From positions 29,539-93,538 of the forward strand of contig CAJTPO010000004.1 in assembly GCA_910578115.1 (NCBI GenBank): 64,000 nucleotides of DNA, written 5' to 3'. The stretch is from an uncultured Lachnospiraceae bacterium (lineage in GTDB: Bacteria > Bacillota > Clostridia > Lachnospirales > Lachnospiraceae). The translations under genes were made by a program, and so were the position numbers. The stretch's first letter is position 1. The number at the start of each line of letters is the position of its first letter. This document shows, piece after piece, positions 18,948 through 40,772 of this stretch. Under the pieces are notes generated by a model, which was not told the DNA's origin, searched no databases, and was given only the letters and a program-made list of their open reading frames with translations.

Positions 18948-20015
18948 GTGGTGAAAAGAATAGGATGGATTGATTGTGCTAAATTTGTGGCTGTAATAGC
19001 AGTGGTAGTAGACCATTGCTATGGATTAATGTACATATCGCCCTTTATAGCCTATGCAAGTTATTTTTCAGTAAGTTTATTTATATTGTTGTCAGGTATT
19101 TCTACATGGACGGCATTTGAACGTGGAAAAGATACATCATTTTTATATCAATTTAGTAAGGTGAAAAGATTATTGGTTTTATATGCTGTTGCCGTATTAG
19201 TAGTGTTATGTATAGAACAAAAAAAGTTTGACATGAAGATATATTTGAGAAGCTTAGTGGAATTTAATATACAAGGACCTTACTACTATTTAGTCTTCTT
19301 TATTCAGCTTCTAATGATTGCGCCAATATTAGTAACATGGTGTAGGAATGTGAATAATAGAAAACATAAATGGATTATACATGCTGGTGCATTAGGAGCA
19401 TTTGGGTGGTTTGCATATATAAGTATTAATTATACATATATTCTTCCAGTGCATGGCGGTGGACAATTCTTGGGGGGGGGGACATATGTAATTCTATATT
19501 ATATGGGTATGCTTTTAGCAAGTAATGGTGTATTTGAACAAAGCATAAATAAAAGAGTATTGATAGCAGTTATATGCTGTGGAACATCTATTGTGTGGAT
19601 TCTCCTAATGGCAGAAGAAATACTTCCCTTTGATAGATGGATGAGTCCATATTGGGGAGCTGGATTTAATCCACCCAGTATAAATTTAATGATTTATTCT
19701 TTGCTGGTGTTATTCGTGTGTTATAGCGTATTTTCTTTATTGTGCAAGGTACAGAATAAATTAGTGAGAAGAATAGTTTTTATAGTGAGCTTTTTTGGAA
19801 AAAATACCTTATATATATGGTTATATCATTTGATAGTAAAGTCTTTCTTTTTAAAGCAGTTTCCAGATTTGTTTTATCAAAATTTAATTTTTAAAGCAGT
19901 TATATTTTGTGCAATTGTTGCTATACCAGCTATAGTTAAGCAGGTTATTTATATGTTCGGTGAGTTTTGCTATGATCATCTAGTTTGTCGTGAAGATGAA
20001 TATAAAAAGTTATAA
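18948..20015 (+). CDS. Acyltransferase family 3 (membrane O-acyl/acetyltransferase)
   Basis: GWIDCAKFVAVIAVVVDH... followed by ~10 TM segments. Confidence 0.8.
   Translation: MVKRIGWIDCAKFVAVIAVVVDHCYGLMYISPFIAYASYFSVSLFILLSGISTWTAFERGKDTSFLYQFSKVKRLLVLYAVAVLVVLCIEQKKFDMKIYLRSLVEFNIQGPYYYLVFFIQLLMIAPILVTWCRNVNNRKHKWIIHAGALGAFGWFAYISINYTYILPVHGGGQFLGGGTYVILYYMGMLLASNGVFEQSINKRVLIAVICCGTSIVWILLMAEEILPFDRWMSPYWGAGFNPPSINLMIYSLLVLFVCYSVFSLLCKVQNKLVRRIVFIVSFFGKNTLYIWLYHLIVKSFFLKQFPDLFYQNLIFKAVIFCAIVAIPAIVKQVIYMFGEFCYDHLVCREDEYKKL
19472..19481 (+). repeat. Homopolymeric G10 tract inside the acyltransferase-3 gene
   Basis: ttcttGGGGGGGGGGacatat encodes FLGGGT at about codon 175 of 355. It is currently in frame. 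Confidence 0.95.
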
Positions 20016-20034
20016 TTAAAATTAAGGAGGAAGT

Positions 20035-20454
20035 ATGAAATATTTAGGACCGCAGATGTTGGAATTTCCCCAGAACGGTGATGAGAGAGGTCACTTGGTT
20101 GTTGTAGAAGGACAAAAGGACATCCCATTTGATATTAAAAGGATATTTTATATATATGGTTCGGATGATGATGTTATCAGAGGACAACATGCGAACCAGA
20201 AAACAGAATTTGTTTTGATTAATGTTGCTGGGCAATGTAGGGTAAAGGTACGGGATGGGAAAGGAAATGAAGCGATATTTTTCTTGAATCGTCCTCATAC
20301 AGGTATATATCTACCTAAAATGGTATGGAAGGATATGTATGACTTCAGTGCAGATTCGGTATTACTTTGCTTGGCCAGTGAACATTATGATGCCACTGAA
20401 TATATAAGGGAATATGATGAATATCTTAAATTAGTGACGGATGAGGATAAATAA
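20035..20454 (+). CDS. WxcM/FdtA-like cupin, dTDP-4-keto-6-deoxyhexose 3,4-ketoisomerase family
   Basis: 139 aa. F.QNGDERGHLVVVEG..DIPFDIKRIFYIYG...RGQHANQK matches the FdtA/QdtA pattern. Confidence 0.8.
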   Translation: MKYLGPQMLEFPQNGDERGHLVVVEGQKDIPFDIKRIFYIYGSDDDVIRGQHANQKTEFVLINVAGQCRVKVRDGKGNEAIFFLNRPHTGIYLPKMVWKDMYDFSADSVLLCLASEHYDATEYIREYDEYLKLVTDEDK

Positions 20455-21378
20455 ATGAAGATATCAGTAGTTATTCCAGTATATTATAATCAGAACAATT
20501 TAAGACCGCTATATGCAGATATATCTGCAAAACTTTTAGATCAAGACAAATATGAATGGGAAATCGTCATGGTGGATGACGGTTCTAAAGACAAAAGCTA
20601 TGACATAATGAAGGAATTGTCTGAAAAAGATGAAAGAATTAAGATATATGGTTTGTCAAGAAATTTTGGCTCACATGCGGCGATCCTTTGCGGGCTGTCA
20701 AAGTGCACAGGTGATTGTGCAGTGGTCAAAGCAGCTGATCTTCAGGAACCGACGGAGATGATTCTGGAAATGGTAGACAGTTGGAAAAAAGGGAATAATG
20801 TTGTTTTGGCAGTAAGAAAAGACCGGCAGGAGGGGAAAGGACAGACGCTTTTTGCAAATTTGTATTACTGGCTGGTCAGGAAAGCAGCATTGCCGAATAT
20901 GCCGCGTGGCGGTTTTGATGTATATTTGCTGGATAGAAAAGTCATTAATGTAATGATGCAGCTTGATGAGAAAAACAGCGCACTGACCGGACAGATTTTA
21001 TGGAGTGGTTTCAGAACTGAGAAAATTTATTATACAAGGCTGCAGAGAGAAATCGGTGAGAGCAGGTGGACTTTGAGGAAAAAGATTAGGCTGGTAACAG
21101 ATACGTTATTCAGTTTCTCAACATTACCGATTACGATTGTTTCGGTTATAGGAACATTATCCTGCTTTGGTGCGACAATGTGGGCTGTACTAGTGTTTGT
21201 TTTCAAAATAATGGGGTTAATAGATGTGAGCGGCTGGACAACCTTATTTATTTTTAATTTGCTCAGTTTTGGAATCATTATGTTGACACTTGGAATTCTT
21301 GGTGGATATTTATGGAGAGCATTTGATGCCTCCAGAAACAGACCACCCTATATTATAGAGGAGGAACATGAACAATGA
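20455..21378 (+). CDS. GT2 polyprenyl-phosphate sugar synthase (GtrB/ArnC/DPM1-like)
   Basis: ISVVIPVYYNQ...IVMVDDGSKDKS...GLSRNFGSHAA, plus two C-terminal TM helices. Confidence 0.8.
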   Translation: MKISVVIPVYYNQNNLRPLYADISAKLLDQDKYEWEIVMVDDGSKDKSYDIMKELSEKDERIKIYGLSRNFGSHAAILCGLSKCTGDCAVVKAADLQEPTEMILEMVDSWKKGNNVVLAVRKDRQEGKGQTLFANLYYWLVRKAALPNMPRGGFDVYLLDRKVINVMMQLDEKNSALTGQILWSGFRTEKIYYTRLQREIGESRWTLRKKIRLVTDTLFSFSTLPITIVSVIGTLSCFGATMWAVLVFVFKIMGLIDVSGWTTLFIFNLLSFGIIMLTLGILGGYLWRAFDASRNRPPYIIEEEHEQ

Positions 21379-21986
21379 CTGTGCGGTTAAGGAAGCTCCA
21401 AAGTAAAGACCGTATAGGAATGCTCGAATGGATGCATGATATAGATACGGCAAAATATTTTCGCGATGACATGTTAGCCAAAACAGAGCAAGATGTTCTA
21501 AAATTCATAGAGCAGGCAGATCTTGCCCCGCAGAATGGTAAGAGTGTGCATTATGCAATTGTTGAAGAAACGGATATGTATTTGGGGACGATCAGCTTGA
21601 AATCAATCAATTTTCAAGACAGAAATGCTGAATATGCAATTAGTTTGAGACGTGCGGCACAAGGTAAAAAGATTGCGTATGTTGCAACAAAAGAGTTGTT
21701 GGACATAGCATTTAATCAATTTGACTTGGAAAGGGTTTATTTGAATGTCTTATCAAAGAATGAGAGAGCAATACGGTTATATGAGAAATGTGGATTTGTT
21801 CTGGAAGGTGAATTTCGAAATCATTTGTGCCTAAATGGGCAATATCAGAATTTGAGGTGGTATGCTATGTTAAAAACCGAATATCAAAAGTTAGGATATA
21901 TGTGTGTGGGGGGGGGTAACACCTTCTTGATTGATTCTATATACAGCCTCTTTGAACAGTGGGCAGAAAGGAGGCTGGCAGCATAG
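21375..21986 (+). CDS. GNAT-family N-acyltransferase (RimJ/RimL-like)
   Basis: ISLKSINFQDRNAEYAISL...GKKIAYVATKELLDIAF..LERVYLNVLSKNERAIRLYEKCGF. Confidence 0.8.
   Translation: MTVRLRKLQSKDRIGMLEWMHDIDTAKYFRDDMLAKTEQDVLKFIEQADLAPQNGKSVHYAIVEETDMYLGTISLKSINFQDRNAEYAISLRRAAQGKKIAYVATKELLDIAFNQFDLERVYLNVLSKNERAIRLYEKCGFVLEGEFRNHLCLNGQYQNLRWYAMLKTEYQKLGYMCVGGGNTFLIDSIYSLFEQWAERRLAA
21908..21916 (+). repeat. Homopolymeric G9 tract near the 3' end of the GNAT gene
   Basis: tgtgtGGGGGGGGGtaacacc, at codons ~178-181 of 203. Confidence 0.95.
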
Positions 21987-22439
21987 ATGTATAACAGTGA
22001 GAAATGTTTCAGAAGCGTGAAATGCAATGTGGGTGATAAAGCTGAGTTTTGCAAAACGATTTCAGAAAGTGATGTTTATATGTTCGCAGGGATTACGGGA
22101 GATATGAATCCGGTACACATCAATGAAATAGAGGCAACCCGAAGTTTTGTGAAAAAAAGAATTGCACATGGAGCACTTGTAAATGGGATGGTCTCGACAG
22201 TTATTGGAATGAAGCTTCCGGGTCCTGGAACAATCTATATGGAGCAGAATTCCAAGTTTGTTAAGCCGGTTTATATGGGAGATACGATTAAGGCGGTAGT
22301 GGAAGTACAAGAAATTCTGAATGAAGCTAAAGGAGTCATGAAATTGAGTACTATCGTATTTAACCAGAATGATGAGATTGTGATGAATGGATTTGCTGTC
22401 GTAATGGTACCGAAGGAGAACATGCATGAAAAAGATTAG
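21987..22439 (+). CDS. MaoC-like (R)-specific enoyl-CoA hydratase, hot-dog fold
   Basis: FAGITGDMNPVHINE..A......KRIAHGAL matches the MaoC dehydratase motif region. 150 aa. Confidence 0.8.
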   Translation: MYNSEKCFRSVKCNVGDKAEFCKTISESDVYMFAGITGDMNPVHINEIEATRSFVKKRIAHGALVNGMVSTVIGMKLPGPGTIYMEQNSKFVKPVYMGDTIKAVVEVQEILNEAKGVMKLSTIVFNQNDEIVMNGFAVVMVPKENMHEKD

Positions 22440-23124
22440 TAAACAGGCATATATTGCAGACACAGCGATCATCTATGATGATGTGGAAATTGGAGAAGAT
22501 GTTATTATACATGATTATGTAGTGATATATCCTAATACAGTCATTGAAAATGGTTGTGAAATTTATGATCATTGTGTGTTGGGAAAATTGCCGACATCAC
22601 CAGGGGTTACGTCAAGAAAAATTAAGGTAGAGTTTTCAAAGCTGATAATAGGTGAGAATTCGATTTTATGTCCCGGGGTGGTGTTATATGCAGGAAGCAA
22701 AATCGGATGTAATAATTTATTGGGTGACTTTTGTTCGATCAGAGAAGAGTGCATGGTGGGCAATAATTGCATTATCAGCAGAAATGTGAGTGTTAACTAT
22801 AATACCAGCATTGGTGATTATACAAAGATCATGGATAACACACATATTACAGGTAATATGAAAATTGGAAATCATGTATTTATCAGTGTCTTAGTGGCAA
22901 CTACCAATGATAATACGATGGGAAGAATAGAGTATAATGAGGATCATGTCCAAGGAGCGACGATAGGTGATTATGTAACGATCGGAGCAGCAGCAAATAT
23001 TTTGCCGTGTGTAAATATTGGTAAGAATGCAATCATAGGAGCAAGTGCACTTGTTACAAGAGATGTGCCTGATAATAAGGTGGTTATGGGAGTGCCGGCA
23101 AAAGTGATAAGAGATGTAGAATAA
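22426..23124 (+). CDS. Left-handed beta-helix (hexapeptide-repeat) acyltransferase, FdtC/QdtC-like candidate sugar N-acyltransferase
   Basis: Hexapeptide periodicity runs throughout: IGEDVIIHDYVVIYPNTVIENGCEIYDHCVLG... Confidence 0.8.
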   Translation: MKKISKQAYIADTAIIYDDVEIGEDVIIHDYVVIYPNTVIENGCEIYDHCVLGKLPTSPGVTSRKIKVEFSKLIIGENSILCPGVVLYAGSKIGCNNLLGDFCSIREECMVGNNCIISRNVSVNYNTSIGDYTKIMDNTHITGNMKIGNHVFISVLVATTNDNTMGRIEYNEDHVQGATIGDYVTIGAAANILPCVNIGKNAIIGASALVTRDVPDNKVVMGVPAKVIRDVE

Positions 23125-23137
23125 GGGAGAGCTTCGT

Positions 23138-24232: not shown

Positions 24233-24244
24233 GATTATGTAATT

Positions 24245-24754: not shown

Positions 24755-24860
24755 AAAAGTTTTTTCGAAAATAAAGGTTAAAGATACGTATAATATATCG
24801 GCCAAAGACAAAAAAGAATGAGCTTCTTTTAGACTTCGTTATTTGAGGAGAGGGGAACAG

Positions 24861-25241
24861 ATGCTAATGAATTATTTGTATTCATTTCTTGATTGGGTTA
24901 TGAACAGGTGTTACGAGTTTTGCGGAAGTTATGGATTTGCAATCATACTGTTTACTTTACTGAGTAAAATAGTTTTATTACCAATTTCGTTATGGACATA
25001 TATGAATTCCATAACAATGATCAAGATTCAGCCTGACATAAATTTTCTCAAAGTAAAGTATTATGGGCTGAAGGATACTATAGCAGAAGAACAGGCGAAG
25101 CTGTTTAAGGAGAAGAAATATCATCCGTTGACATCTACTATTCTACCGATTATTCAGTTAGTGATATTTATAGGAGTAGTAGGGGCTGACCGTGCTGGAA
25201 TTGATAATCCTGTAATTGATATGTCTTTTGTAACGGTTGAT
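24861..25241 (+). pseudogene. 5' fragment (~127 codons) of a YidC-like::TagF-like fusion gene, truncated by IS insertion
   Basis: High identity to the first ~125 aa of 33777..35681. DNA homology stops exactly after TTGAT (25237-25241). The remaining ~500 codons are absent. Confidence 0.75.
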
Positions 25242-25405
25242 TGAAACAATCCCACCCCTCCCCAGCAGAGCTGGGGAGAATCGTGTACGCAAGTGGCTAT
25301 GAACGAAGTCCCATAAAAAAGCCTCCGTTGTATAATAAGTGTAGGTCTGACAAACCACACAAAATACAACGGAGGCATCCATGGATAATCAAAGTTTATC
25401 ACATA

Positions 25406-27293
25406 GTGCGCCACGAAACAAGGGTGCATTGTTATGCGGGTGGAAATCCCGTCCAGTAAGGTATCAGTCATACCACTGAAAGCGAGTCTTGGTCCGGCAT
25501 TGGTAATAGTGCAGGTTAAGCGTAGACAGTAAGGCAGTAGGGTAGCCATTGAGTACCGAAATAAACTTAATTCCAGCAGGCCGACGCTGTTATGTGGGCG
25601 GAAGGCAAAATACCAGTTTATGGATATGGCGAGATTTCGGGTGTTGCTGCGGTATCGGAGAACCTATCATGCTGCACAAGAGCAATGCGTCAACTTGGGA
25701 GAGCCAACACCTCCCGGCAGAGAAAACTGCCGGGATGCCGTACAACCGCAAGGGAGAAAAGCAAATAGGGCGAGGGCAGTCGGACAGTACCAGAGAAAGC
25801 GGCGAAAGCCGCCGGAGGGAAGCTGAGAGGGGACAATTCCTCAAAGTCCCTGCTGTGCAAGGCAATATCGAAAAGGAAACATTGGCCATACACAGAGGTG
25901 GAATAGGCAATGGGAACGAAATTGAAGAGAATATCGCAATTATCAAGAGAGAACCTGGACATGGTATTTACATCCATAGAGCATTTGATTAACAAAGAAC
26001 TTCTAAGAGAATGTCATGAAAAGATGGATGAGAAGAAAGCTGTAGGAATCGATGGAATAACGAAGGAGGAATACAGTGCACACCTGGAGGAAAATCTGAA
26101 ATTGCTGGAAGGACGGATAAAGAACAAATCCTATAAGCCTAGGCCGGCAAGGAAGGTGGAGATACCAAAAGAGGATGGGAAGACAAGACCGCTGAGTATC
26201 TACTGTTATGAGGACAAACTGGTACAGGAGGCGCTCCGACGAATATTGGAGGCAGTATTCGAACCGTATTTCTATGAAAAGATGATGGGGTTCCGGCCGG
26301 GAAGGGGATGCCATCAGGCGCTCCGGCTGTTGAACACATATATCGAGAAAAGATATATTGGGTACGTAGTGGATGCGGACATCAGGTCATTCTTCAATAA
26401 CCTCGACCATGAATAGGCAGTGAAGTTCATTGAGTCGAAAATCAAAGACCCAAACATCATACAGTTAGTCAGACGGATGCTGAAAGCCGGAATTATGGAA
26501 GACTATCAGTTTGCGGCAACGGAGTCCGGTCCAGGGAAGCGTCTGTTCGCCAGTCATCGCAAACATATACATGCATTATGTGTTGGTGTGGTGGTTTAAG
26601 GAAAAGCTACAGCCGAAAGCGAAAGGATTCAGCGGACTGGTGGTGTATGCGGATGATTTTGTGGCCTGCTTTCAGTATAAATGGGAAGCGGAACGATTCT
26701 ACGAACGTCTGAAAAGGAGAATGGGATACTTTGGACTGGAATTACAAGAAGACAAGAGCAGGCTAATCAAGTTTGGGAGGTTCGCCCAGCAGGATGCATC
26801 GGAAAAGGGAACCAAAGCTGCAACATTTGACTTTCTGGGTTTTACACATTACTGATCCACAAACAAGAGTGGTAAGTTCAGGGTAAAGAGGAAAACCAGC
26901 AGGAAGAAATCCAAGAAGAAGTGCAAGGAAATGTGGAGATATATACGGGAAAACCGTCATATCCCGACAGATATGCTCATCAGGAAGTTGAATGAAGTGC
27001 TCATCGGATATGACCATTACTATGGCATTACAGACAATTATGCCAGTCTGCAAAAGTTTCACTTTAACATAAGGAAATTCCTGTTCTACTGGCTGAACCG
27101 CAGGAGCCAGCGCGAAAGCTATATATGGGAAGGCTTCAGAGATTTCATGAAAACGAAGCCATTGGTGGCACCTAAGATATATGTCAGTATTTGTGCTTGA
27201 TAAGGGCTGAATAATCAGTCCTGCAAAGAGCCGGATGCGGTAACGCCGCACGTCCAGTTCCAGGAGGGGGATGTCGCGTAAGGGGCATATCTA
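25406..27293 (+). mobile_element. Bacterial group II intron (~1.9 kb) with an ORF in domain IV
   Basis: The 5' end is GTGCG at 25406. Canonical domain V GAGCCGGAUGCGGUAACGCCGC-AC-GUCCAGUUC lies at 27228-27260 (AGC triad, AC bulge), followed by a domain VI-like stem. RT/maturase ORF fragments lie in between. The 3' boundary is uncertain by ~3 nt. Confidence 0.8.
25910..27200 (+). pseudogene. Group II intron-encoded reverse transcriptase/maturase, disrupted
   Basis: RT blocks (KKAVGIDGIT..., RPLSI...DKLVQEAL, FRPGRGCHQA, VVYADDFV) and the maturase X region are split by an in-frame TAG (26414-26416), a frameshift near 26520-26530, and an in-frame TGA (26853-26855). Confidence 0.85.
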
Positions 27294-27694
27294 CTCGACG
27301 TAGATATAATTGCACGTACCATATAGTATTTATCCCAAAATACAGGGTAAGGTGATGTTTGGGAATTTGAGAAAGGAGATAGGCGAGGCGATCAGTAAAG
27401 AGTGCAAGATGGAAGGAGTAACGATAATAAAGGCAGCGACGTAAACAGATCACGTGCATATGTATGTGTCAATTCCACCAAAAGAAAGTGTGTCAAAAGT
27501 AATGGGAAGAATAAAGGGAAAACAGCAGTCTAATTCTATTCGACAGACATCCAGAGTACAGGGAGAGATATAACCGGCATTTCTGGGCAAGAGGATATTA
27601 TTGCGAAACGATCGGTAATGTAGATGAGGCAACGATAACGAAGTATATTGCGGAACAATATGAGAGGGATCGACTGGAAGGAGAGACCTCGTAA
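27294..27694 (+). pseudogene. tnpA: IS200-type Y1 (HUH) transposase tnpA, exon 2, decayed; exon 1 is 25381..25405
   Basis: Joining MDNQSLSH (25381-25405) to TRRRYNCTYHIVFIPKYR reconstitutes the IS200 TnpA N-terminus. The HUH motif DHVHMYVSIPP is present. Several frameshifts and stops follow. Confidence 0.7.
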
Positions 27695-27878
27695 TGATTA
27701 AAGAGAAACCGCTTTTAAGTGGTTACCAGTAACAAAAAGGAACGGTTTGTCAGACCGTCTTTAGGCGGAAACACAAAAGACCTCGGAGGGGTTATAGCAA
27801 ACCACCAGCAGAGCTGGTGGCACTGACTTGGAGCCTTCAGAGCCTGAATATGATCATCATGAATGGAAGGAAATAATT

Positions 27879-29586: not shown

Positions 29587-30711
29587 ATGCAAGTCGATAT
29601 CATAACATTTCATTTTGTGAATAATTTCGGAGGTGCGTTACAGGCATATGCTCTGCAGAAAACAATTTCGGAATGTTTTAATGCAGAATGTGAGATAATT
29701 GATTATAAGAATCGCTTTATATCTCTTACGGATTACGTGAGACTATTTCCGATTACCTCAAATTTGAAAGAAATTAAAGCAGGACTAAGGACGATGGGAT
29801 TACGTTTTGAGAGAATTCACATGTTCCATGATTTTATTTTAAGCAATTGCAGGCTTACCAAATTATATAGAAATTACAGAGCGTTAAAAACTGATCCGCC
29901 CGTGGCGGATAAATACATATGTGGAAGCGACCAAATATGGAATCCAATGCTCACAATGGGAGTATCAAGAGGATATTTTTTAAGATTTGTTGCAGATACA
30001 AATAGTAGAATTGCATATGCCCCCAGTTTCGGAACAGACAAAATTCCTGATATTTTTAAAAAGGTAATAAGAAAGTATCTGGATGGAATGGGTCATCTGT
30101 CGGTTAGAGAAAGGGGGGGGGTGAAATTGATTAAACATTTAACGGGCAAATCGGCAGAGCAATTGATAGATCCTACGTTTTTAGTGAGTAAATGCGACTG
30201 GGAGAAGCTGGGGAATAATCCCAGAGACGATGAAGAGTATATTTTGTTATACATTATGCAGAGAGATATGCAAGTATATAAGTATGCGCGTAAAATTAAG
30301 GAACAGATGGGTATAAGACTGATAGAAATAAGCAGATATGGGTATAATCCGGGATTTGTAGATGAATGTTTAATCAACATTGGACCGGCAGAATTTTTAG
30401 GATTATTTCGAGATGCAAAATATGTATGTACAAACTCTTATCACGGACTGGTATATTCTATTATTTTTGAAAAAGATTTTTGTCTTATACCTTGCAAGAG
30501 ATTTAGAGCCAGAATTAATAATTTACTCAAATTATTACATATAGAGACAGTGGATGACTGTGTATACAAGGGCAGACTCACAGCTTCATATGATAAAGAA
30601 TTTGTTAGAAATACGATAGCTGCCGAGAGGCGTAAGGCACTCAATTATTTGGGAGTCAGTTTTAAAGACGAAAAGACAGAAAAGGACGAAAACCATGATA
30701 GAGATTGCTGA
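29587..30711 (+). CDS. Polysaccharide pyruvyl transferase family protein (copy 1)
   Basis: ITFHFVNNFGGALQAYALQ...ICGSDQIWNP...IAYAPSFG...TNSYHG are PS_pyruv_trans hallmarks. Confidence 0.8.
   Translation: MQVDIITFHFVNNFGGALQAYALQKTISECFNAECEIIDYKNRFISLTDYVRLFPITSNLKEIKAGLRTMGLRFERIHMFHDFILSNCRLTKLYRNYRALKTDPPVADKYICGSDQIWNPMLTMGVSRGYFLRFVADTNSRIAYAPSFGTDKIPDIFKKVIRKYLDGMGHLSVRERGGVKLIKHLTGKSAEQLIDPTFLVSKCDWEKLGNNPRDDEEYILLYIMQRDMQVYKYARKIKEQMGIRLIEISRYGYNPGFVDECLINIGPAEFLGLFRDAKYVCTNSYHGLVYSIIFEKDFCLIPCKRFRARINNLLKLLHIETVDDCVYKGRLTASYDKEFVRNTIAAERRKALNYLGVSFKDEKTEKDENHDRDC
30113..30121 (+). repeat. Homopolymeric G9 tract inside pyruvyl transferase copy 1
   Basis: gagaaaGGGGGGGGGtgaaa encodes RERGGVK at about codon 176 of 374. 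It is currently in frame. Confidence 0.95.
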
Positions 30712-31876: not shown

Positions 31877-31902
31877 TGTGATTCCTGAAACACGGAGGAT
31901 AT

Positions 31903-32331: not shown

Positions 32332-32716
32332 TCATATTATCAATTACTGTACCCTGTTATGGGAGAAGATGCGAATGTGAGATTGAAGTAAAGATTCTAT
32401 ATACAAACTGGTAATACAGTAGGGATGGATGAGAGATGGATAAGATATGTAATCTGAATAAGTTTCTAAAGATGCTGTGTAGAGTGGTCTTTGCTTGTTT
32501 TTTTACAATTATGTTCTTTGGGACTGATTTTCAAAATAAGTATAATGCCTACGTGCTTGTTTTTTGTATTTATATCGCTCATAGGATGAATGTAAAGGAT
32601 AAAAGAAAAACTTATAGGGTGCACACTTTAGGCTGCTTTAGCAGCAAACCGAACCTACCGGCTTTAGCCGGTAGTGGTTGAGTTCATTGTTTTTAACAGG
32701 AATTTTTTTCAAAACT

Positions 32717-33166
32717 ATGCGGAAGTATTTGATGATAGTGATTGCAGCAGTGATTTTGGTCTATGTAGTGTTATTCAGCAATATATTAGTGCCTGCCTTA
32801 AAGATTGCGCCGGGAGGGAAACAGGAAGCTCTAAGCCTGCCTTTTCAACAAACAGCTTTGTATGTGAAGGAGTATGGAAATGAACTTACTCAGGAAGAGC
32901 ATGGAATTATCAATGCTGTATTACCGGTAGATGAAATTGCAGGTCTTTATGTGGCGGATAGAGCAGATAATGTTAAATTTAAGTATAAACAATCGGCTAC
33001 AGGAGAAGAACTTACAGATTATTTTTTGCTGTGGCTGAGGCAGTTTTTCAAGCATCCGGATGTTTATTTAAAAGCGTTCTTTGCAATCACAGACGGCTAC
33101 TATTATGTTGGTAGCGAAAGAGCAGCCTTGGACTTATATACGGGAATAGAAGTTGCCGAGCTATAG
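32717..33166 (+). CDS. Hypothetical N-terminally anchored protein, possibly a gene fragment
   Basis: MRKYLMIVIAAVILVYVVLF (TM) followed by a soluble region. It sits in a zone of short broken ORFs. Confidence 0.3.
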   Translation: MRKYLMIVIAAVILVYVVLFSNILVPALKIAPGGKQEALSLPFQQTALYVKEYGNELTQEEHGIINAVLPVDEIAGLYVADRADNVKFKYKQSATGEELTDYFLLWLRQFFKHPDVYLKAFFAITDGYYYVGSERAALDLYTGIEVAEL

Positions 33167-33217
33167 CATTTGTTTTGAAATATAAAATGGATGTATAAGG
33201 AAAAGATGGTTAAATGC

Positions 33218-33300: not shown

Positions 33301-33776
33301 GAAAAGATTAAAATTTATCGATACCATGACGTCTGGATTGTGACATTTTCTTATTGATTCCAACAAACATTAAATAGTAAGTTGACATCTCAGAATCAAG
33401 TCCTTCGATTGGCTGCCAACCAGCTACCTCAACACGCTCTCTATATTATAGAAAGGATATCTATCCATTTATAAGTGTTTTTGAGAGTTGATGTAGATGT
33501 GAAGTTAGTGAATATTGGGGTAATGGTATTCAAAATGCCTGTGGTTAATGCAAAAGATGAATGTAATTCAATAAGATGGTTTTTTATATCATAAGAGTGA
33601 GGTAGTAATGACTGGTATTTATAGTAAACGACATAACAATTTGCTGGTTCCGGTTTTTATTAAAGCTATTATATACCGTAGCTTTTGCAGATGTGAAATG
33701 AAAATTCCAATGTCATAACTATAAATTTTTAAGATTTTACATTTACAGGATTAAGTATTGAGAGGAATGGCAAATT

Positions 33777-35681
33777 ATGGAACATCTATATAGTGCCTTA
33801 ACATGGGTTATGAATGGCTGCTATAGTCTTTGTAATAATTATGGACTGGCAATCGTACTGTTTACATTTCTAAGTAAAATCGTATTATTACCAGTGTCTC
33901 TTTGGACTTACATGAATTCCATAACGATGATTAAGATTCAGCCGGATATTAATTTATTGAAAATAAAGTATTATGGGCAGAAAGATATCATAGCAGAGGA
34001 ACAGGCAAAATTGTTTAAGGAAAAGAAGTATCATCCTTTGGCGTCAACCATTCCGTTGATTATTCAGTTAGTATTGTTAATGGGCGTAGTAAGCGCTGTA
34101 CGGGCTGGAATAGATAACCCTGTGATTGATATGACTTTTGGACCAATTGATCTGGGATTGATACCGAGCCAGACGGGGGTAGAGTTGATCTGGTCTCCGA
34201 TTGTTGCCGGTGTAGCGGCATGGATATTATGTATTGCACAGAATGCAAGTAACATATTACAGTCTGAACAATCCAAGTATAATAAATATGGTACTATGAT
34301 TCTTTCAGTTGTTTTGTCGTTGTATTTAGGATGGTATGTTCCGATAGGGACTGCTTTTTACTGGGTCTGTAGTAACCTTATGGCAGTTTTGCAGTTATAT
34401 ATTCTTAATTGGATTATTAAGCCAAGAAAATATGTAGACTATGAGAAACTGAATAAGAGCCGTAAGACCTTGGTGGAATTACAGAATATAGGAAAAAAGA
34501 AAAAGGAAAGTTTTTTTTCTGAGAATAAGAAAAGAGAAAGAAGAGATTATAAGAGATTTTTTTCGATAGTTAATAAGCATTTGGTATTTTACTCTGAGAG
34601 TAACGGATTTTATAAGTATTTTAAGGGATTTATAGAATATTTATTAGAGCATACAAATATTACAATTCATTATATTACCAGTGATGCAAATGATGATATT
34701 TTTAAAAAGGAAAAAGAGAATCCACAGATTAAAGCATATTATATAGGCGAGAATAGATTAATCACGCTTATGATGAAAATGGATGCGGATATAGTTGTAA
34801 TGACGATGCCGGATCTTGATAATTTTCATATAAAGCGAAGCTATATAAGGGATGATATTGAGTATATTTATGTTCAGCATGATATGGGTGGAACTAACAT
34901 GGGAATGAGAAAGGGAAGCTTGAATCATTTTGATACGATTTTTTGTTCTGGGCCGCATCAAATATCAGAGATCAGGGAAACGGAAGAAGTATACGATCTG
35001 CCTGCAAAAGAGTTAGTTAAAGTAGGGTACCCGCTTATTGATGAAATTAAAGAAAAATATGATTCTGTAGAACATGGTGAAAATGCGATAAAGAAGATAT
35101 TAATTGCACCATCGTGGCAGGAAGATAATATTCTTGATACTTGTCTGGAGGAGCTTTTGGATGCACTTAAAGACAGAAACTACAATATTATTGTGCGGCC
35201 GCATCCGCAGGAAGTGCGTCTGAAAAGAGAATATATGGAATCTGTTAGACAAAAATATGAATCAGAACATGTAATAGTTCAAACGGACTTTACATCAAAT
35301 AATCCGGTGATGGAAGCTGACATGGTAATCACTGATTGGTCTGGAATAAGCTGGGAATATTCTTTTACAACGAAAAGGCCGGTGTTATTTATTGACACAC
35401 CGATGAAAGTGCTCAATCCTGAATACCAGAGAATAAAAACCGTTCCTTTAAGTGTTCAGTTAAGAGATAAAATTGGTAAAAGCATTAAATTAGATCAACT
35501 AGGAAAAGCAGCAGAATATGTTGAATTTTTGATGAATCATAAAGAAGAATATCAGGAGCAGATTACTAGACTGGCTGAAACGTATATTTTTAATCTTGGG
35601 AGTTCAGCAGAAGCTGGCGCAGATTATATTATCAAAAGTTTACAAGAGAAATTGAGCAGAAAAGGGGAAGGTGAAAAATGA
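33777..35681 (+). CDS. Fusion protein: YidC/Oxa1-like membrane domain + TagB/TagF-type CDP-glycerol glycerophosphotransferase-like domain (copy 2, intact)
   Basis: N-terminus GLAIVLFTFLSKIVLLPVSLW...QPDINLLK...EEQAKLFKEKKYHPL..IPLIIQLVLLMGVV. C-terminus ILIAPSWQEDNILD...IVRPHPQ...MVITDWSGISWEYSF..KRPVLFIDTP. Confidence 0.8.
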   Translation: MEHLYSALTWVMNGCYSLCNNYGLAIVLFTFLSKIVLLPVSLWTYMNSITMIKIQPDINLLKIKYYGQKDIIAEEQAKLFKEKKYHPLASTIPLIIQLVLLMGVVSAVRAGIDNPVIDMTFGPIDLGLIPSQTGVELIWSPIVAGVAAWILCIAQNASNILQSEQSKYNKYGTMILSVVLSLYLGWYVPIGTAFYWVCSNLMAVLQLYILNWIIKPRKYVDYEKLNKSRKTLVELQNIGKKKKESFFSENKKRERRDYKRFFSIVNKHLVFYSESNGFYKYFKGFIEYLLEHTNITIHYITSDANDDIFKKEKENPQIKAYYIGENRLITLMMKMDADIVVMTMPDLDNFHIKRSYIRDDIEYIYVQHDMGGTNMGMRKGSLNHFDTIFCSGPHQISEIRETEEVYDLPAKELVKVGYPLIDEIKEKYDSVEHGENAIKKILIAPSWQEDNILDTCLEELLDALKDRNYNIIVRPHPQEVRLKREYMESVRQKYESEHVIVQTDFTSNNPVMEADMVITDWSGISWEYSFTTKRPVLFIDTPMKVLNPEYQRIKTVPLSVQLRDKIGKSIKLDQLGKAAEYVEFLMNHKEEYQEQITRLAETYIFNLGSSAEAGADYIIKSLQEKLSRKGEGEK

Positions 35682-35941
35682 AAAAAATATCAAAAATGTT
35701 ATTTGTTGTCGGCTTTACATATGGTTGCAGTATGCTGTTGTTTGGACAGGATGTACAGGCATATATTGATCCTTCCGTTATGACTTATGTAATACAGGCA
35801 GTGGCAGGGGTTGTTATTGCAGTTGGCGCAGTGGTAGGTATTTATTTCAGAAGGGCAAAGAAAAAACTAAATGAAAAGCTTGGAATTGATGAAAATAGGA
35901 ACAAAGAAGTAGAGTCAGATGAAATTATTATTAACAAATAA
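35678..35941 (+). CDS. Procoat-like mini membrane protein (87 aa), paralogue of 46321..46578
   Basis: Signal-peptide-like N-terminus ending VQA, then YIDPSVMTYVIQAVAGVVIAVGAVVGIYF (TM) and RRAKKK. ATGA overlap with the upstream gene. Confidence 0.6.
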   Translation: MKKISKMLFVVGFTYGCSMLLFGQDVQAYIDPSVMTYVIQAVAGVVIAVGAVVGIYFRRAKKKLNEKLGIDENRNKEVESDEIIINK

Positions 35942-35971
35942 TGTAGCTTATAGCTGGAAAAGGAATCTAAA

Positions 35972-36697
35972 TTGAAAATATTGATTATGTCTGATATCCA
36001 TGGTAATGAAGAGGCTCTTAATGCTGTACTGAATAAAGCAGCAGACTATGAAATTGATGCTTGTTTTTTACTGGGAGATGTCATAGATTATGGAATGCAT
36101 TCTAATGAAGTAATTGTTAGGTTGAAATCTCTCCCGTACCCGATTATTTGTAACATTCGTGGAAATCATGAGGATGCTGTAATAGCAGATCATTACGATG
36201 CATTTTCATCGGAGCGGGGCAGGCAGAGTGCTAAATATACAAAAAGTATACTGAATGCGGACTCATGGAAGTATATACAAAATAAAATGGCTGCAACTGG
36301 TATGATTGAATTTGAGTGTGCCAATAAAAAGTGTCTGGCAATACATGGGAGTCTTAGAGATCAATATTGGAAAAGTATAGATACTGACAATGACTTTTAT
36401 GATTACTGCGCTTATGATTATGTATTTTCCGGACATTCTCATATGCCGCATTTTGTGGAAAAGTACTATCCGTATGAGGATACCAGAAGAAGAAATAAAA
36501 AGAAGATTATTTTCATCAATCCGGGTTCAGTGGGGCAGCCAAGAAATCATAATCCTATGGCACAATTTGCTGTATTGGATATGCATACAGAGGCTATTTT
36601 GTTTGACAAAGCAGAGTATGATATAGCAAAAGAACAATTGGCTTTTGCTGGGCAGATCGACAAATTTTATAGAGATAGATTGGAGGCAGGTGTGTAA
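35972..36697 (+). CDS. Metallophosphoesterase (YfcE/MJ0936-like)
   Basis: ILIMSDIHGN...LGDVIDYG...GNHE...GHSH. TTG start with RBS AAAAGGAA. Confidence 0.8.
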   Translation: MKILIMSDIHGNEEALNAVLNKAADYEIDACFLLGDVIDYGMHSNEVIVRLKSLPYPIICNIRGNHEDAVIADHYDAFSSERGRQSAKYTKSILNADSWKYIQNKMAATGMIEFECANKKCLAIHGSLRDQYWKSIDTDNDFYDYCAYDYVFSGHSHMPHFVEKYYPYEDTRRRNKKKIIFINPGSVGQPRNHNPMAQFAVLDMHTEAILFDKAEYDIAKEQLAFAGQIDKFYRDRLEAGV

Positions 36698-37686
36698 TGA
36701 ATTTATATGTTATCAGTGGAGTTGCTGGAATGACGGGAAATGAACTTGCCAGGAGGCTGACTGCATCAGGGGATAGAGTAATTGGATTTGATAATTTTTT
36801 TGCTTCTTCCGTAAGGACGATTGAGGATGTTCTATCTAACACAAATTTTGTGTTTTATGAATATGATTTAAATAACGAAGCGCAGATGGAAAGTTTGAAA
36901 CAGGAGATCTTTAAACATAAGAAAAGCTGTGAAAAGCTTATTTATATAAATTGTGCGGCAGTTGTACACACTGAACATTTCTATTATGTAAATCGTACTT
37001 TTGAAACGAATGTGATTGGTATGAAAAAATTTTTGGAACAGGCAATAGAAGTAGAAGCTAATGTTTATATTAATTGTTCTACATCAGAAGTGTATTCTAT
37101 GAATTCATGGAATAGTGACGGTGGAGTGTCCGAATCTGATTATATTACAATGGCTAATGCAGAACACAGTCAGAGGACAAGTTACGCTACTGGTAAATTA
37201 CTTACAGAGTTTTTTATGAAGGATGCGGTGGCAGAACATAAGATTAAGGGATGTTCTATTCGCTTTGCTAATGTTTACAGCAAGAATGAATTGTATCCGA
37301 AACATATTATTCCGCATATCATTAATGAATTAAGAAATAAAGGGTGTGTGGAGTTGTTGGAAAATTCCAAAGTAAATAAAAGGACTTTTTTGCATAACGA
37401 GGATAGTTGTGCCGCGGTGATAGCCTTAGCGGAAACAGACTCGGCGTTAGATGGGTCGGTATATAATGTGGCAACTGACGAGGAGATATCGATTATTGAT
37501 CTGGTAAAGCTTTGTGGTGAAAAATTAGGTATTACTGATCCGGAGATTATGTTTGAGGGATATCGGGAATCAGATCCGGAGAGAAGAGTGTTGAGTACTC
37601 AAAAGATCAGAACCAGAACAAACTGGATACCAAAGATAACCCTGAGTCAGGGAATAGAAATGTGTGTTAAGGAGTTAGAACATTGA
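36697..37686 (+). CDS. NAD-dependent epimerase/dehydratase (extended SDR)
   Basis: GVAGMTGNELARRL (GxxGxxG), SYATGK (YxxxK). Confidence 0.85.
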   Translation: MNLYVISGVAGMTGNELARRLTASGDRVIGFDNFFASSVRTIEDVLSNTNFVFYEYDLNNEAQMESLKQEIFKHKKSCEKLIYINCAAVVHTEHFYYVNRTFETNVIGMKKFLEQAIEVEANVYINCSTSEVYSMNSWNSDGGVSESDYITMANAEHSQRTSYATGKLLTEFFMKDAVAEHKIKGCSIRFANVYSKNELYPKHIIPHIINELRNKGCVELLENSKVNKRTFLHNEDSCAAVIALAETDSALDGSVYNVATDEEISIIDLVKLCGEKLGITDPEIMFEGYRESDPERRVLSTQKIRTRTNWIPKITLSQGIEMCVKELEH

Positions 37687-38429
37687 GAATTATGATTATT
37701 ACAGTTGCAGGGGTGGCAAGTAGATTCAGTCAGTCTATAGGTTGTCCCTGCTTGAAGTGTCTATACTATAAAAATGATATAAAAGAGTCTTTATTGTACC
37801 ACATACTCAGCCAGAATTCAGAGATTGATAAATATGTGATTGTTGGGGGATTTAAATTTGAGGAACTGGAAAGGAGCATTCATCAGTATTTCTCCCAGTT
37901 TTATGATCGCATCATTTTAGTGAAAAATGAAATGTATGAAAAATATGGATCAGGGTACAGTCTATATTTGGGATTGAATGCGATCAAGGATTTAAATTAT
38001 GATGAGCTGGTTTTTGCAGAGGGAGATTTGTGGGTTGATGAAGAGAGCTTTAGACGTGTATGGGAGACCCCCGGAAATGTGATTACATGTAACAATGAGG
38101 CGATTTTAGCAAGTAAGTCCGTTGCATTTTATTATGATCGTGAGTATAGAATTCACTATATATTTGATACTACTCATTCTCTACTGGAAATCAGAGAACC
38201 CTTTCAGGGAATTTTTAATTCGGGACAAATTTGGAAGTTTTCTCAAAAGGATTGTGTTCAAAAAGCTATGGCTGGGCTTACGCAGGAAGAATGGCAGCAG
38301 ACCAATCTTGGTTTTATTCAGAGATATTTTGGATGTCTTAATCAGGAAGGTTATAAAATTGTTAATTTTCAGAAGTGGTTAAATTGTAATACGAAATTTG
38401 ATTTTGATAAAATTGAAGGAATGAAATAG
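37683..38429 (+). CDS. Nucleotidyltransferase-fold protein (MobA/LicC-like NTP transferase), candidate cytidylyl/nucleotidylyl transferase
   Basis: N-terminal MIITVAGVASRF resembles the GxGxR(F/L) NTP-transferase loop. The rest is not recognisable by eye. Confidence 0.5.
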   Translation: MRIMIITVAGVASRFSQSIGCPCLKCLYYKNDIKESLLYHILSQNSEIDKYVIVGGFKFEELERSIHQYFSQFYDRIILVKNEMYEKYGSGYSLYLGLNAIKDLNYDELVFAEGDLWVDEESFRRVWETPGNVITCNNEAILASKSVAFYYDREYRIHYIFDTTHSLLEIREPFQGIFNSGQIWKFSQKDCVQKAMAGLTQEEWQQTNLGFIQRYFGCLNQEGYKIVNFQKWLNCNTKFDFDKIEGMK

Positions 38430-38433
38430 TCAA

Positions 38434-39555
38434 ATGAAAATCGGAATTATTACGTACGAAAGCTTATATTGTAATTTTACAAATTATGGAACTGTATTGC
38501 AGGCATGGGCACTTTTTAAAGTGGTATCCGGTCTTGACATTCTGTATGAGCCGGTTTTGATTGATTATTGTCCTGATATTATGCATGATAAAGATCCACT
38601 TAATCCAATGAAGAATATGTGGGATATGGATTATGAAACGAGAAAAATGTGTGAGCTGTCATTGCCATCTATTAAAATAAATTTTGAAAAGATTAGAAAA
38701 TTCTATTTTGAAAAAATCAGGATGTCAGATCGAAGTTATACATCAGCTACAATTAACAAGGTGGTGGATGAAGGGATTTCTAAATTTATTTGTGGAAGTG
38801 ATTCGATATGGGATATTACGGAGTTTGGAATGGATAGAGGTTTTTTTGCAGATTATCCGATAATGCAGGGAAATTCTATTGCCTATGCGCCAAGCTTTCA
38901 AGATTCTTTTTCGGAGTATTCTCAGGAGGAAAGGAGTCGACTCATCAAATTATTAAATAATTTTTCGGCTGTTGGTATACGTGATGAGGAACCTGTTAGT
39001 GTTCTGTGTAATTATGTGAACAGCGAAGTAAAAAGGGTGGTCGATCCTACATTATTATTGAAGAACAGTGATTTTGATGAGATTGTTGCAGAGAAACAGG
39101 AAAGTGAACGGTATCTGCTATATTATTCTCGAAGATATAATGAAGCGATGGAGCGTTTTGCAGTTGAGACTGCAAAGGCCAGAGGACTGAAAGTAATAGA
39201 GATTAGTTTGCGTCATGAGAATTATGAAAGACACAGAATGTTTTATGAAGCAGGAGTAGAGGAATTTTTATCACTTGTCAAATATGCGGATTGTGTAATC
39301 ACGAATTCATTTCATTGTTTGATTTTTGCCCTTCATTTTGAAAAAGATTTTTATGCTTTTACAAGAGAGCACTGTAACAATAAGATTTGTGAATTGCTTG
39401 CCAGATTAAATTTGGAAGGGAGACTGCTCAAAGATGGCTGTGAAAAAACAAAAAGTAAAATTGACTATTTGGATATAAAAGACCGTTTAGAAAAGGAACG
39501 TTTAGAGTCTTTGGAGTTTTTGGAGAGACAACTTAAAGATATTTGTAGAGGGTGA
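38434..39555 (+). CDS. Polysaccharide pyruvyl transferase family protein (copy 2)
   Basis: IITYESLYCNFTNYGTVLQAWAL...ICGSDSIWD...IAYAPSF...TNSFH. Confidence 0.8.
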   Translation: MKIGIITYESLYCNFTNYGTVLQAWALFKVVSGLDILYEPVLIDYCPDIMHDKDPLNPMKNMWDMDYETRKMCELSLPSIKINFEKIRKFYFEKIRMSDRSYTSATINKVVDEGISKFICGSDSIWDITEFGMDRGFFADYPIMQGNSIAYAPSFQDSFSEYSQEERSRLIKLLNNFSAVGIRDEEPVSVLCNYVNSEVKRVVDPTLLLKNSDFDEIVAEKQESERYLLYYSRRYNEAMERFAVETAKARGLKVIEISLRHENYERHRMFYEAGVEEFLSLVKYADCVITNSFHCLIFALHFEKDFYAFTREHCNNKICELLARLNLEGRLLKDGCEKTKSKIDYLDIKDRLEKERLESLEFLERQLKDICRG

Positions 39556-39559
39556 TAAA

Positions 39560-40772
39560 ATGAAGTCTGTGTACAATGATATTAAGAAACAATGTTTTGG
39601 ATGTGAAATATGTGTGGGGGGGTGTATGTCCCCATAAAGCAATCACTATGGTCGAAGATGAGGAAGGATTTAGATATCCGGAAATTGATCAGGAATTGTG
39701 CATAGATTGCGGTGCATGCAGGCGGATTTGTCCATATATTAATATACCAGAGAAAAATCAGCATAAACCATATGTGTTTGGTGGATATCATAAAAGTTCA
39801 GGGATTAAAGATCAAAGTACTTCGGGTGGAGCATTTTCAGCGATAGCTGAGGTGTTTTGTAATGAAAATTATGTTGTTTTTGGAGCGGCTGTTGAAGGTC
39901 TGAGAGTTTACCACACATATACTGAGGATAAAAAAGAGCTTTATAGGTTTAGAAGATCTAAGTATGTCCAAAGTTTTATGGGAGATTCCTATAAAAGAGC
40001 GATGCAGTTTTTGAAAGACGGAAAGAAGGTTCTTTTTTCAGGAACACCATGTCAAATTGCAGCATTAAATAATTATATTGTCCCCGCGGCGTTAAAAGAA
40101 AATTTATACACAATAGAAGTAGTATGTGAGGGGTTTCCGTCCCCACTTCTAATGAGAAAGTATTTTACGCTACTCAAGGAGCGTCACCATTCATCGGTTA
40201 GAGAAGTAGATTACAGATATAAAGACAGAAACCGGTGGGATTTCGAAGTTATGAAAATAACGTTTGAGAATGGTAAAGTTATGAAAAAGGATAGGTGGTT
40301 TAATCCTTTTTGGATTTTCTGGTCGGAACGTGTTATGGGAAGACCCTCATGTGACGAGTGTCCGTTTAGAACGACAGACAGGGTGGCAGATATTACGTTA
40401 GGTGATTTATGGGGAGTGCATAAATATTGTCCGGAATTATATGGAAATAATGGTGGCAGTTCTTTGGTCGTATGTAACAGTGAGAAGGGAGAAAAACTAT
40501 TTAAACAGGCAGAAAAGCTATTATACGGGCATGAACTGGCATATGAGGATGCATTAAAATATCAAAGACCTATGAGAGTGATCGTTCCGGCAAATGAAAA
40601 AAGAGAAATGTTCATGCATGATCTTAAGGCGTTGGATTATACGTCATTATGTAAGAAATGGAAGCCAAGAACGTCCTTGAAGGTATTGTTCTCTAAATAT
40701 ATATGGGGAAGTAATCGACAGGTTGTTAATTTTTGGAAAGTGAAGTCATATTTTATTAAGCCTAAGACTTAA
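39560..40772 (+). pseudogene. FrhB-like Fe-S flavoprotein (copy 2), frameshifted at a G7 tract near codon 20 (phase-OFF or a sequencing error)
   Basis: ATG 39560 gives MKSVYNDIKKQCFGCEICVGGCMSP*. After the G7 tract the paralogous sequence (VCPHKAITMVEDEEGFRYP...) continues in the +2 frame to 40772. Confidence 0.75.
39616..39622 (+). repeat. Homopolymeric G7 tract at the frameshift point
   Basis: tgtgtGGGGGGGtgtatg. Confidence 0.95.

Follow-up and report, generated by a model that had tools for sequence, protein, structure and literature searches.

Four poly-G runs in a cell-wall glycopolymer locus

We analysed a stretch of 64,000 nucleotides (hereafter the window) from an uncultured Lachnospiraceae bacterium (assembly GCA_910578115.1, contig CAJTPO010000004.1, positions 29,539 to 93,538), in which four poly-G runs lie within four genes of a cell-wall glycopolymer locus. 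The locus, delineated by Pfam scans, extends from approximately position 728 to 48454 of the window on the + strand; it comprises about 48 kb of co-directional genes and is of the ABC-transporter type. Its glycosyltransferase and export genes encode GT1 and GT2 family glycosyltransferases, an ABC-2 permease and a Wzt-type ATPase, alongside one methyltransferase, two GtrII-like and two GtrA-like proteins and a GtrB-like GT2. An amino-sugar module (FdtA, DegT, a hexapeptide transferase, GNAT and MaoC) is also present, as are two pyruvyl transferases, three FrhB-like Fe-S proteins, a phosphoenolpyruvate (PEP) mutase, a phosphonopyruvate decarboxylase and YidC-Glyphos_transf fusions, all recognized by Pfam. 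The four tract-bearing genes encode an acyltransferase (AT3), the GNAT protein, one of the pyruvyl transferases (Pyr1) and one of the FrhB-like proteins (FrhB2), all of which are, as judged from their families, predicted decorating enzymes and not backbone or export components.

A sequence-only reading of the window had reported only four G runs of 7 nt or more (G10, G9, G9 and G7), all inside + strand tailoring genes of this locus, and no C run of that length. Our recount returned exactly these four runs, at identical coordinates, as well as a longest C run of 5 nt (no C run longer than 5 occurs in the 64 kb), and the Pfam assignments uphold the gene calls. Four open reading frames thereby hold, within the coding region, a homopolymer of the length (about 7 nt or more) at which repeats become hypermutable. 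Other statements required correction. The proportion of G, taken to be roughly one fifth of bases, is 25.0% (A 31.6%, T 29.2%, C 14.2%), with a strong skew of G over C along the entire window, whose annotated genes all lie on the + strand. The estimate of 0.02 runs of 9 or more G per ~45 kb was approximately 7-fold too low: assuming independent and identically distributed bases, 0.13 such runs are expected per 45 kb and 0.18 per 64 kb, while Markov simulations of order 2-3 give about 0.05. The conclusion that the runs are non-random nevertheless holds, three runs of at least 9 G being observed where 0.05-0.18 are expected (Poisson P roughly 1e-3 to 2e-5).

The distribution of run lengths in the 64 kb is bimodal: there are 118 G4 and 16 G5 runs, neither a G6 nor a G8 run, one G7, two G9 and one G10. 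G5 and G6 are depleted (16 observed vs 35 expected and 0 vs 8.8, respectively) and G9-10 runs are in excess. Furthermore, only 19% of glycine codons are GGG, and among 45 runs of consecutive glycine codons the pair GGG-GGG is confined to the tracts.

Position of the tracts and predicted effect of length changes

The AT3 gene (18948-20015, + strand), which encodes a membrane acyltransferase of the Acyl_transf_3 family (PF01757, 2e-24), is intact, i.e. ON, in the window, where it specifies 355 residues. The run scan places its G10 tract at 19472-19481 (+ strand), in mid-gene, where it forms codons 175-178 (TTG GGG GGG GGG, or L-G-G-G); GGC GGT GGA is used for a Gly-Gly-Gly that lies 17 nt upstream. 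As determined by translation, G10 gives the 355-residue protein, G9 and G12 give 180 and 181 residues, and G8 and G11 give 191 and 192 residues.

Pyr1 (29587-30711, + strand), a polysaccharide pyruvyl transferase of 374 residues (PS_pyruv_trans, PF04230), is likewise ON in the window. Its G9 tract, found by the same scan at 30113-30121 (+ strand), is also in mid-gene (AGG GGG GGG GTG, or R-G-G-V), and translation gives 374 residues for G9 and 181, 178 and 182 residues for G7, G8 and G10, respectively. In 60 homologues, the region of the tract reads SVRE(K/R)SGQ and only one glycine is conserved. The closest homologue (86% identical) has R-S-G-R at this place, encoded by AGA TCA GGC CGG, and hence no tract. 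Since the region is not conserved, the tract is lineage-specific and is not demanded by the protein. Homologues of Pyr1 are labelled Lachnospiraceae, Pseudobutyrivibrio and Blautia.

FrhB2 (39560-40772, + strand; FrhB_FdhB_C and Fer4 domains) contains the single tract that is out of frame, in agreement with the sequence-only reading, which had noted one such tract. The G7 tract (39616-39622 by run scan, + strand) spans codons 19-21, inside a CxxCxxC...CP motif. The match to its paralogue FrhB3 places the true start at the ATG at 39560, which is preceded by a ribosome-binding site (GAGGG, 39548-39552); the alternative open reading frame 39576-40772 was rejected, as its ATG lacks a ribosome-binding site and three cysteines of the first 4Fe-4S motif would be missing. 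Indeed, the frame opened at 39560 encodes MKSVYNDIKKQCFGCEICVG..., matching MNSVYDNTKSQCFGCEICVKVCP of FrhB3, including the motif MxSVY..QCFGCEICV, and the two proteins are 75.5% identical overall. Because the G7 frame ends after 25 residues, FrhB2 is OFF in the window. G9 and G12 restore the frame and yield 404 residues, whereas out-of-frame products have 25 or 48 residues. The ON form (CVGGGVCP) regains the CxxCxxC...CP motif of FrhB3, and the two in-frame lengths, G9 and G12, may alter the geometry of 4Fe-4S cluster binding, beyond a mere ON/OFF effect.

The GNAT gene (Acetyltransf_3 by Pfam; 21375-21986, + strand) differs from the other three. Its G9 tract (21908-21916, + strand, from the run scan) forms codons 178-180, past the end of the GNAT fold: homology to the solved SpeG and PseH structures stops at residue ~170-172. 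Slips therein exchange the C-terminal tail only, the 203 residues of the G9 frame becoming 184 or 181 by translation. Reading the sequence directly, we noted that the downstream MaoC-like gene starts at an ATG at 21987 and has a strong Shine-Dalgarno sequence, GAAAGGAGG, at 21966-21974 (the element as a whole covers 21966-21989, + strand). Translation in the G9 frame crosses this Shine-Dalgarno sequence and ends at a TAG (21984-21986) that abuts the ATG. The output of the GNAT tract may therefore be at most modulatory, for instance through upstream translation over the ribosome-binding site of the next gene. A fusion of GNAT with the MaoC-like protein by a slip was considered and rejected, as all three frames stop ahead of the ATG at 21987.

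By translation, then, a length change toggles the reading frame of AT3, Pyr1 and FrhB2 and does not do so for GNAT. The proposal that all four tracts act as switches is accordingly supported for the three genes whose products are truncated by slips, but not for the GNAT tract, which is 3' of the catalytic fold.

Tract lengths differ among near-identical public assemblies

Contigs carrying the locus were obtained from NCBI, ENA and Logan by exact protein look-up of tract-free neighbour genes; they come from independent mouse-gut metagenome assemblies and are referred to below by L numbers. Eleven contigs from independent assemblies are 99.7-100% identical to the window and differ from it almost only at the tracts. 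In these near-identical contigs (nine for AT3, GNAT and Pyr1), AT3 occurs as G9 and G10, GNAT as G8, G9 and G10, Pyr1 as G7, G8, G9 and G10, and FrhB2 as G7 and G8. For L004, L006, L008 and L009, a tract is the sole difference over 13-15 kb; when these four and L003 are pooled, 4 of 14 tract comparisons differ, against 0 mismatches in ~85 kb. Six A/T runs of 8-9 nt served as a comparison in the same contigs, and none of 49 comparisons showed a change in their length. Note that a 20-nt insertion seen in L004 (~5424-5438, window position 15487), in a GtrII-like gene called there as 470 + 580 residues, is a run of N and corresponds to a scaffold gap.

The proteins predicted for each tract length were also searched by exact look-up in a collection of 15 billion proteins, alternative start calls being summed. 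The products predicted for slips of plus or minus 1-3 nt are each present on 1-40 public contigs; counted over all lengths seen, each length is on 1-65, contigs of more than 170 kb among them. For AT3, the contigs number 4 with G8, 23 with G9, 38 with G10 (ON), 11 with G11 and 2 with G12, so that ~38 of 78 are in frame, and the in-frame alternatives G7 and G13 were found on no contig of the collection. The corresponding figures for Pyr1 are 24 (G7), 13 (G8), 39 (G9, ON) and 15 (G10), ~39 of 91 being in frame, with no contig for G6, G11 or G12. FrhB2 is represented by ~44 contigs with G7, 9 with G8, 18 with G9 (ON), 4 with G10, and one each with G11 and G12 (the latter ON); its in-frame alternative G6 had no contig in the collection. 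GNAT, finally, is found with G8 on ~12 contigs, G9 on ~86, G10 on ~17, G11 on 5 and G12 on 3, and with G7 on none in this collection. In-frame states of AT3, Pyr1 and FrhB2 thus fall on one length per gene, save for the single FrhB2 G12. Each tract exhibits 4-6 lengths, a polymorphism far above background mutation among very close genomes. ON and OFF forms both occur in NCBI metagenome-assembled genomes (MAGs) and on contigs of 110-202 kb.

Tract-free genes of the locus were used as controls. GT2, Pyr2, FrhB1, FrhB3, MaoC and DegT are full-length on about 90% or more of the 83-113 contigs available per gene, and a main identical sequence accounts for 87 contigs of GT2, 83 of Pyr2, 69 of FrhB1, 67 of FrhB3, 110 of MaoC and 101 of DegT; the remainder consists mainly of full-length point variants, with few fragments. 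The cleanest control is the contrast between paralogues, namely Pyr2 vs Pyr1, and FrhB1 and FrhB3 vs FrhB2.

On near-identical backgrounds, the states of AT3 and Pyr1 are found in every one of the four possible combinations: the two genes are ON/ON in L001 and L003, OFF/OFF in L002, ON/OFF in L004 and L009, and OFF/ON in L008. In addition, two FrhB2 haplotypes that differ in the C-terminal region each exist as G7 and as G9 (P0044/P0045 and P0048/P0058), so that the length must have changed independently more than once. No second lesion is present in OFF alleles. Cross-strain comparison of tract lengths, one of the checks proposed along with the sequence-only reading, therefore reveals differences, and those found among near-identical public contigs lend support to its interpretation of the runs as slipped-strand contingency loci.

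Tracts in related lineages and in flanking DNA

A lineage with an FrhB2 that is ~88% identical (L014, L015) has G9 at the same codon position within changed flanks (tgtGGGGGGGGGtat vs tgtgtGGGGGGGtgt). Two more tracts are present in this lineage: a G8 in another AT3 gene, which is split (L014 1774-1781), and a G7 that leaves the FrhB3 orthologue in frame (L014 11559-11565). The lineage that has the 86%-identical Pyr1 (L016-L019) is devoid of a Pyr1 tract; its members show 0 mutual mismatches over 11-17 kb and nevertheless vary in length at two other tracts, one in another AT3 gene (G9 vs G6; L016 5213-5221) and one in a gene of the DUF6020 region (G9 in L016, 14195-14203, vs G7 in L017), the latter difference being accompanied by different gene calls. 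A scan of a genome collection with the GT2 protein yielded only two matches, both in distant glycan loci of Lachnospiraceae (GT2 identity 33% and 25%; 36 kb), and these contain no G or C run of at least 6. Judging from these sequence comparisons, tracts appear to arise, persist and disappear among the tailoring genes of the clade.

The 10 kb upstream of the window (L020) contain further glycosyltransferase genes and no tract. Downstream, a fifth variable tract, G10, is present ~5 kb past the 3' end of the window (L021 19078-19087), in a gene (L021 19001-20422) for a solute-binding lipoprotein. It lies in the linker that immediately follows the lipobox cysteine (LTACGGSGGGNN). This tract is in frame as G7 on 2 contigs, G10 on 47 and G13 on 9, and out of frame as G9 on 32, G12 on 3 and G8 or G11 on 17; the out-of-frame gene calls among cluster members have 498, 499, 496 and 391 residues. 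Confinement of the tracts to glycan-tailoring genes, as first described, hence holds within the window but not outside it. In the ~81 kb scanned (the window plus ~17 kb), all five G tracts of at least 7 nt are in surface-related genes, i.e. four wall-glycan tailoring genes and the gene of one solute-binding lipoprotein.

Other features of the window

Several features of the locus are described here in their own right. A cytidylyltransferase-PEP mutase fusion and the phosphonopyruvate decarboxylase are encoded at window positions 43264-45746; because these genes sit in the locus, the glycopolymer probably bears a phosphonate decoration (e.g. 2-aminoethylphosphonate). Three proteins of the locus (24843-25244, 33777-35681 and 46589-48454) have an N-terminal YidC/Oxa1 domain (60KD_IMP), one being truncated, one having 634 residues and one being fused to a CDP-glycerol glycerophosphotransferase domain, an unusual architecture. 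The Methyltransf_24 gene (10864-12315) contains an in-frame tandem repeat of 96 nt (12082-12331; 2.1-2.3 copies, 83-95% matches), whose copy number varies between otherwise identical assemblies: the products have 445 vs 477 residues, and L001, L002 and L007 have one unit fewer.

A group II intron, recognized as Rfam RF02005 (25443-25664), lies within an IS200-like Y1 transposase gene (window ~25380-27700), the insert spanning ~25407-27309; it was the sole result of Rfam and tRNA scans of the window. Its reverse-transcriptase open reading frames are fragmented, and the transposase part is also frameshifted in the window; the transposase gene is whole and intron-free in L001, and a 211-nt deletion adjoins the site in L005. 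The DUF6020 gene (32375-33166) is an internal-deletion remnant, ~870 nt short compared to L016, where the gene region is intact and holds the variable G9/G7 tract described above. Beyond the locus, a 79-nt tandem repeat (59627-59845; 2.8 copies, 96% matches) separates the genes of a 4-alpha-glucanotransferase and a LacI-family regulator, and the minus-strand open reading frame 62859-63596 has no exact match in the public protein collection. A gene for a small acid-soluble spore protein (SASP) is found just downstream of the window. As for inverted segments, alignments of related contigs to the window were co-linear only, in the absence of a dedicated scan for inverted repeats or recombinases.

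A reversible switch or another origin of the length differences

We consider it likely that these poly-G runs act as hypermutable simple-sequence repeats, three of which give reversible ON/OFF switching of wall-glycan tailoring genes. The presence and non-random nature of the tracts, their length polymorphism on otherwise identical DNA, the effects on the reading frame, the occurrence of ON and OFF states on shared haplotypes, and the retention and turnover of tracts in relatives are seen directly in the sequences; replication slippage, switching within a clone, a change in the glycan and the selective agents involved are inferred. The tracts would gain or lose G residues, presumably via slipped-strand mispairing at replication. 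A change of plus or minus one G in AT3, Pyr1 or FrhB2 would put the gene out of frame and lead to a truncated enzyme, and a further step would restore the frame. AT3, Pyr1 and FrhB2 (and the lipoprotein gene) would each flip independently and reversibly, so that a population would be a mixture of decoration states, with or without an acyl group, with or without one pyruvyl ketal, and with or without the FrhB2-dependent step. The GNAT tract, which is no less unstable, would alter the C-terminal tail and translation over the next ribosome-binding site. The selective agents are plausibly phages that use the wall glycopolymer as a receptor, and host immunoglobulin A (IgA) or other host recognition.

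A number of points weigh against this interpretation. The contig counts are not independent, as one sequencing run can recur in ENA and Logan, and sub-lineages with fixed lengths could in principle explain why assemblies differ. Being located behind the catalytic fold, the GNAT tract is, on the structural homology, no clean ON/OFF switch, and its slips probably leave the enzyme active. FrhB2 is in frame on only ~19 of 78 contigs, i.e. ~75% are out of frame, and the in-frame protein has two extra glycines in the spacer of the cysteine motif compared to FrhB3; for these two reasons, FrhB2 could be partly decayed. Inactivating indels outside the tracts also occur in a related lineage whose members show no substitutions, namely a 1-nt insertion that splits an FrhB1-like gene (L016 11525) and an 11-nt deletion in an AT3 gene (L019 ~5031). 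Together with the DUF6020 remnant in the window, they indicate that ordinary gene decay also operates in these loci, and selection for the loss of tailoring functions may act by means other than the tracts. Finally, the ~81 kb scanned is too little sequence for a claim of genome-wide enrichment.

Such decay is central to the alternative that fares best, according to which the tracts are non-adaptive hotspots in dispensable, decaying tailoring genes and their polymorphism is neutral or mildly deleterious. It would account for the OFF state of FrhB2 on about three quarters of the contigs, for a GNAT tract without obvious loss-of-function effect, and for the other signs of decay in these loci (the DUF6020 remnant, the non-tract frameshifts in relatives and the group II intron in the IS200-like gene); the youth of the Pyr1 tract, which is missing in the closest relatives, also fits. 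We nevertheless regard this alternative as improbable. Depletion of G5-G6 along with an excess of G9-10 is the signature of general avoidance combined with local retention, and the FrhB2 tract has been kept at the same codon in a lineage that is ~12% diverged in protein sequence. Each of several related lineages has more than one tract, and the genes that contain them are invariably tailoring or surface genes. Moreover, the OFF alleles are free of secondary lesions, and on the same haplotypes ON alleles are still found at 25-50%, implying change in both directions.

It is also conceivable that the length differences are artefacts of homopolymer sequencing or assembly, due to stutter in Illumina sequencing or the polymerase chain reaction, or to consensus errors at low coverage. 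G-tract lengths in database sequences are indeed unreliable (PMC9187656), the coverage of some contigs is low (L001 ~3.5x and L014 ~6.4x, from the record name), and one apparent indel, that of L004 at window position 15487, proved to be the gap of Ns mentioned above. The lengths, however, spread from -3 to +3 around the mode (Pyr1 G7 on 24 contigs vs G9 on 39), beyond minor stutter of plus or minus 1, and identical lengths recur across independent projects. Variants are also found in NCBI MAGs and on the long contigs (110-202 kb), while in the same data the A/T runs of 8-9 nt are invariant and the tract-free paralogues monomorphic, which makes an artefact very unlikely. Least plausible of all is recoding, in which the G runs would be programmed sites of transcriptional slippage or ribosomal frameshifting that yield full-length protein at any DNA length: transcriptional slippage at long homopolymers is possible in bacteria, but its productive form is best known from A/T runs of at least 9, neither a stimulatory structure nor a shift-prone heptamer was seen (none was searched for), and the DNA-level variation is demonstrated and sufficient. 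Recoding would at most make OFF states leaky.

Reversible switching by slippage at the G tracts could be part of a larger scheme, which we put forward tentatively and hold to be less probable than not: a poly-G 'phasome' that would be the main surface-variation device of the clade, its tracts being born de novo from non-conserved codons and turning over between the tailoring genes of different lineages. If this were true, every clonal population would hold 8-16 wall-glycan decoration states in addition to lipoprotein states, with phages and IgA as the agents of selection among them, and the device would take the place that invertible promoters have in Bacteroides and Clostridioides difficile.

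Relation to known phase-variable systems and implications

The best-known counterpart is that of Campylobacter jejuni, whose capsule, lipooligosaccharide (LOS) and flagellin-glycan loci include poly-G contingency genes (e.g. those of the MeOPN transferases, cgtA, and Cj1295, the subject of PMC3068675). The resemblance is close: in both cases, intragenic homopolymers of the G8-G11 type occur in an AT-rich genome, concentrated in genes for modification of the glycan as opposed to its backbone, a single locus has several independent tracts whose states combine into different surface glycoforms, slips of plus or minus 1 truncate the enzyme, and tract lengths differ between otherwise identical isolates. 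Whereas C. jejuni is an epsilonproteobacterial pathogen, the present organism is a commensal of the Lachnospiraceae, of the Gram-positive type and spore-forming (as indicated by the SASP gene), and the target is a wall glycopolymer of the ABC-transporter type instead of capsular polysaccharide or LOS. To our knowledge, neither pyruvyl transferases nor FrhB-like Fe-S proteins are known as phase-variable classes of enzymes.

Phase-variable genes of Neisseria comprise lgtA, lgtC, lgtD and lgtG, siaD, the pgl genes and the oat genes, and Haemophilus influenzae has oafA. There too, an O-acetyltransferase, of the AT3 type or another, and tailoring enzymes are switched by intragenic repeats, which results in sugar microheterogeneity. 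The phylum and envelope type are different, however, the Haemophilus repeats are tetranucleotides, and switching rates and phenotypes have been measured in these organisms. PMC9187656 summarises the phase-variable poly-G and poly-C genes of Neisseria for LOS, capsule, pilin glycans and O-acetylation. The same paper reports that in Bifidobacterium breve and other bifidobacteria a G10-G12 tract near the 5' end of sortase-pilus genes decides by its length between ON and OFF; the tract is shared by species throughout the genus, and maximum-depth sequencing revealed heterogeneity within clones (PMC9187656). The bifidobacterial pili thus provide a case of an intragenic G tract in a surface-structure gene of a Gram-positive gut commensal. 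Bifidobacteria are nonetheless GC-rich Actinobacteria with one tract per operon in pilin genes, in contrast to the several tracts per locus in glycan-tailoring enzymes considered here.

Invertible promoters are the established means of surface phase variation in Bacteroides capsules and in C. difficile (cwpV, flgB, cmrRST). Like the mechanism proposed here, they bring about reversible, stochastic ON/OFF switching of surface structures in gut bacteria, but they rely on site-specific recombination of a promoter segment instead of repeat slippage and switch whole loci instead of single decorations. The four genes considered here do not appear to involve a recombinase or invertible element. In the open-access literature, we found no report of phase variation by poly-G or other simple-sequence repeats in glycan loci of Lachnospiraceae or Clostridia, nor of a repeat-switched pyruvyl transferase or FrhB-like protein; a paper on a 'phase-variable capsule' of Akkermansia makes no mention of homopolymer, slipped, poly-G or frameshift.

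Our analysis supports the view that the slipped-strand contingency logic of Campylobacter and Neisseria operates in a gut commensal clostridial lineage. Phase variation of gut commensals is understood mainly via invertible promoters, and repeat slippage is textbook knowledge for mucosal pathogens; the locus described here would add a prevalent mouse-gut Lachnospiraceae species to the organisms that switch by repeat slippage, beside the bifidobacterial pili. In about half of its natural populations, the acyltransferase or the pyruvyl transferase of the wall glycopolymer would be turned off by a one-base slip, and pairs of pyruvyl transferases and FrhB-like proteins are pointed to as candidate phase-variable decorations. 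Where MAG annotations of these loci list 'frameshifted pseudogenes', these probably represent switch states, and the length of a tract can be read straight from existing metagenomes as well as from IgA-sorted or phage-challenged fractions. The tracts offer a hypothesis, readable from sequence, for strain-level surface heterogeneity in Clostridia, which would bear on phage receptors, IgA coating and lectin recognition.

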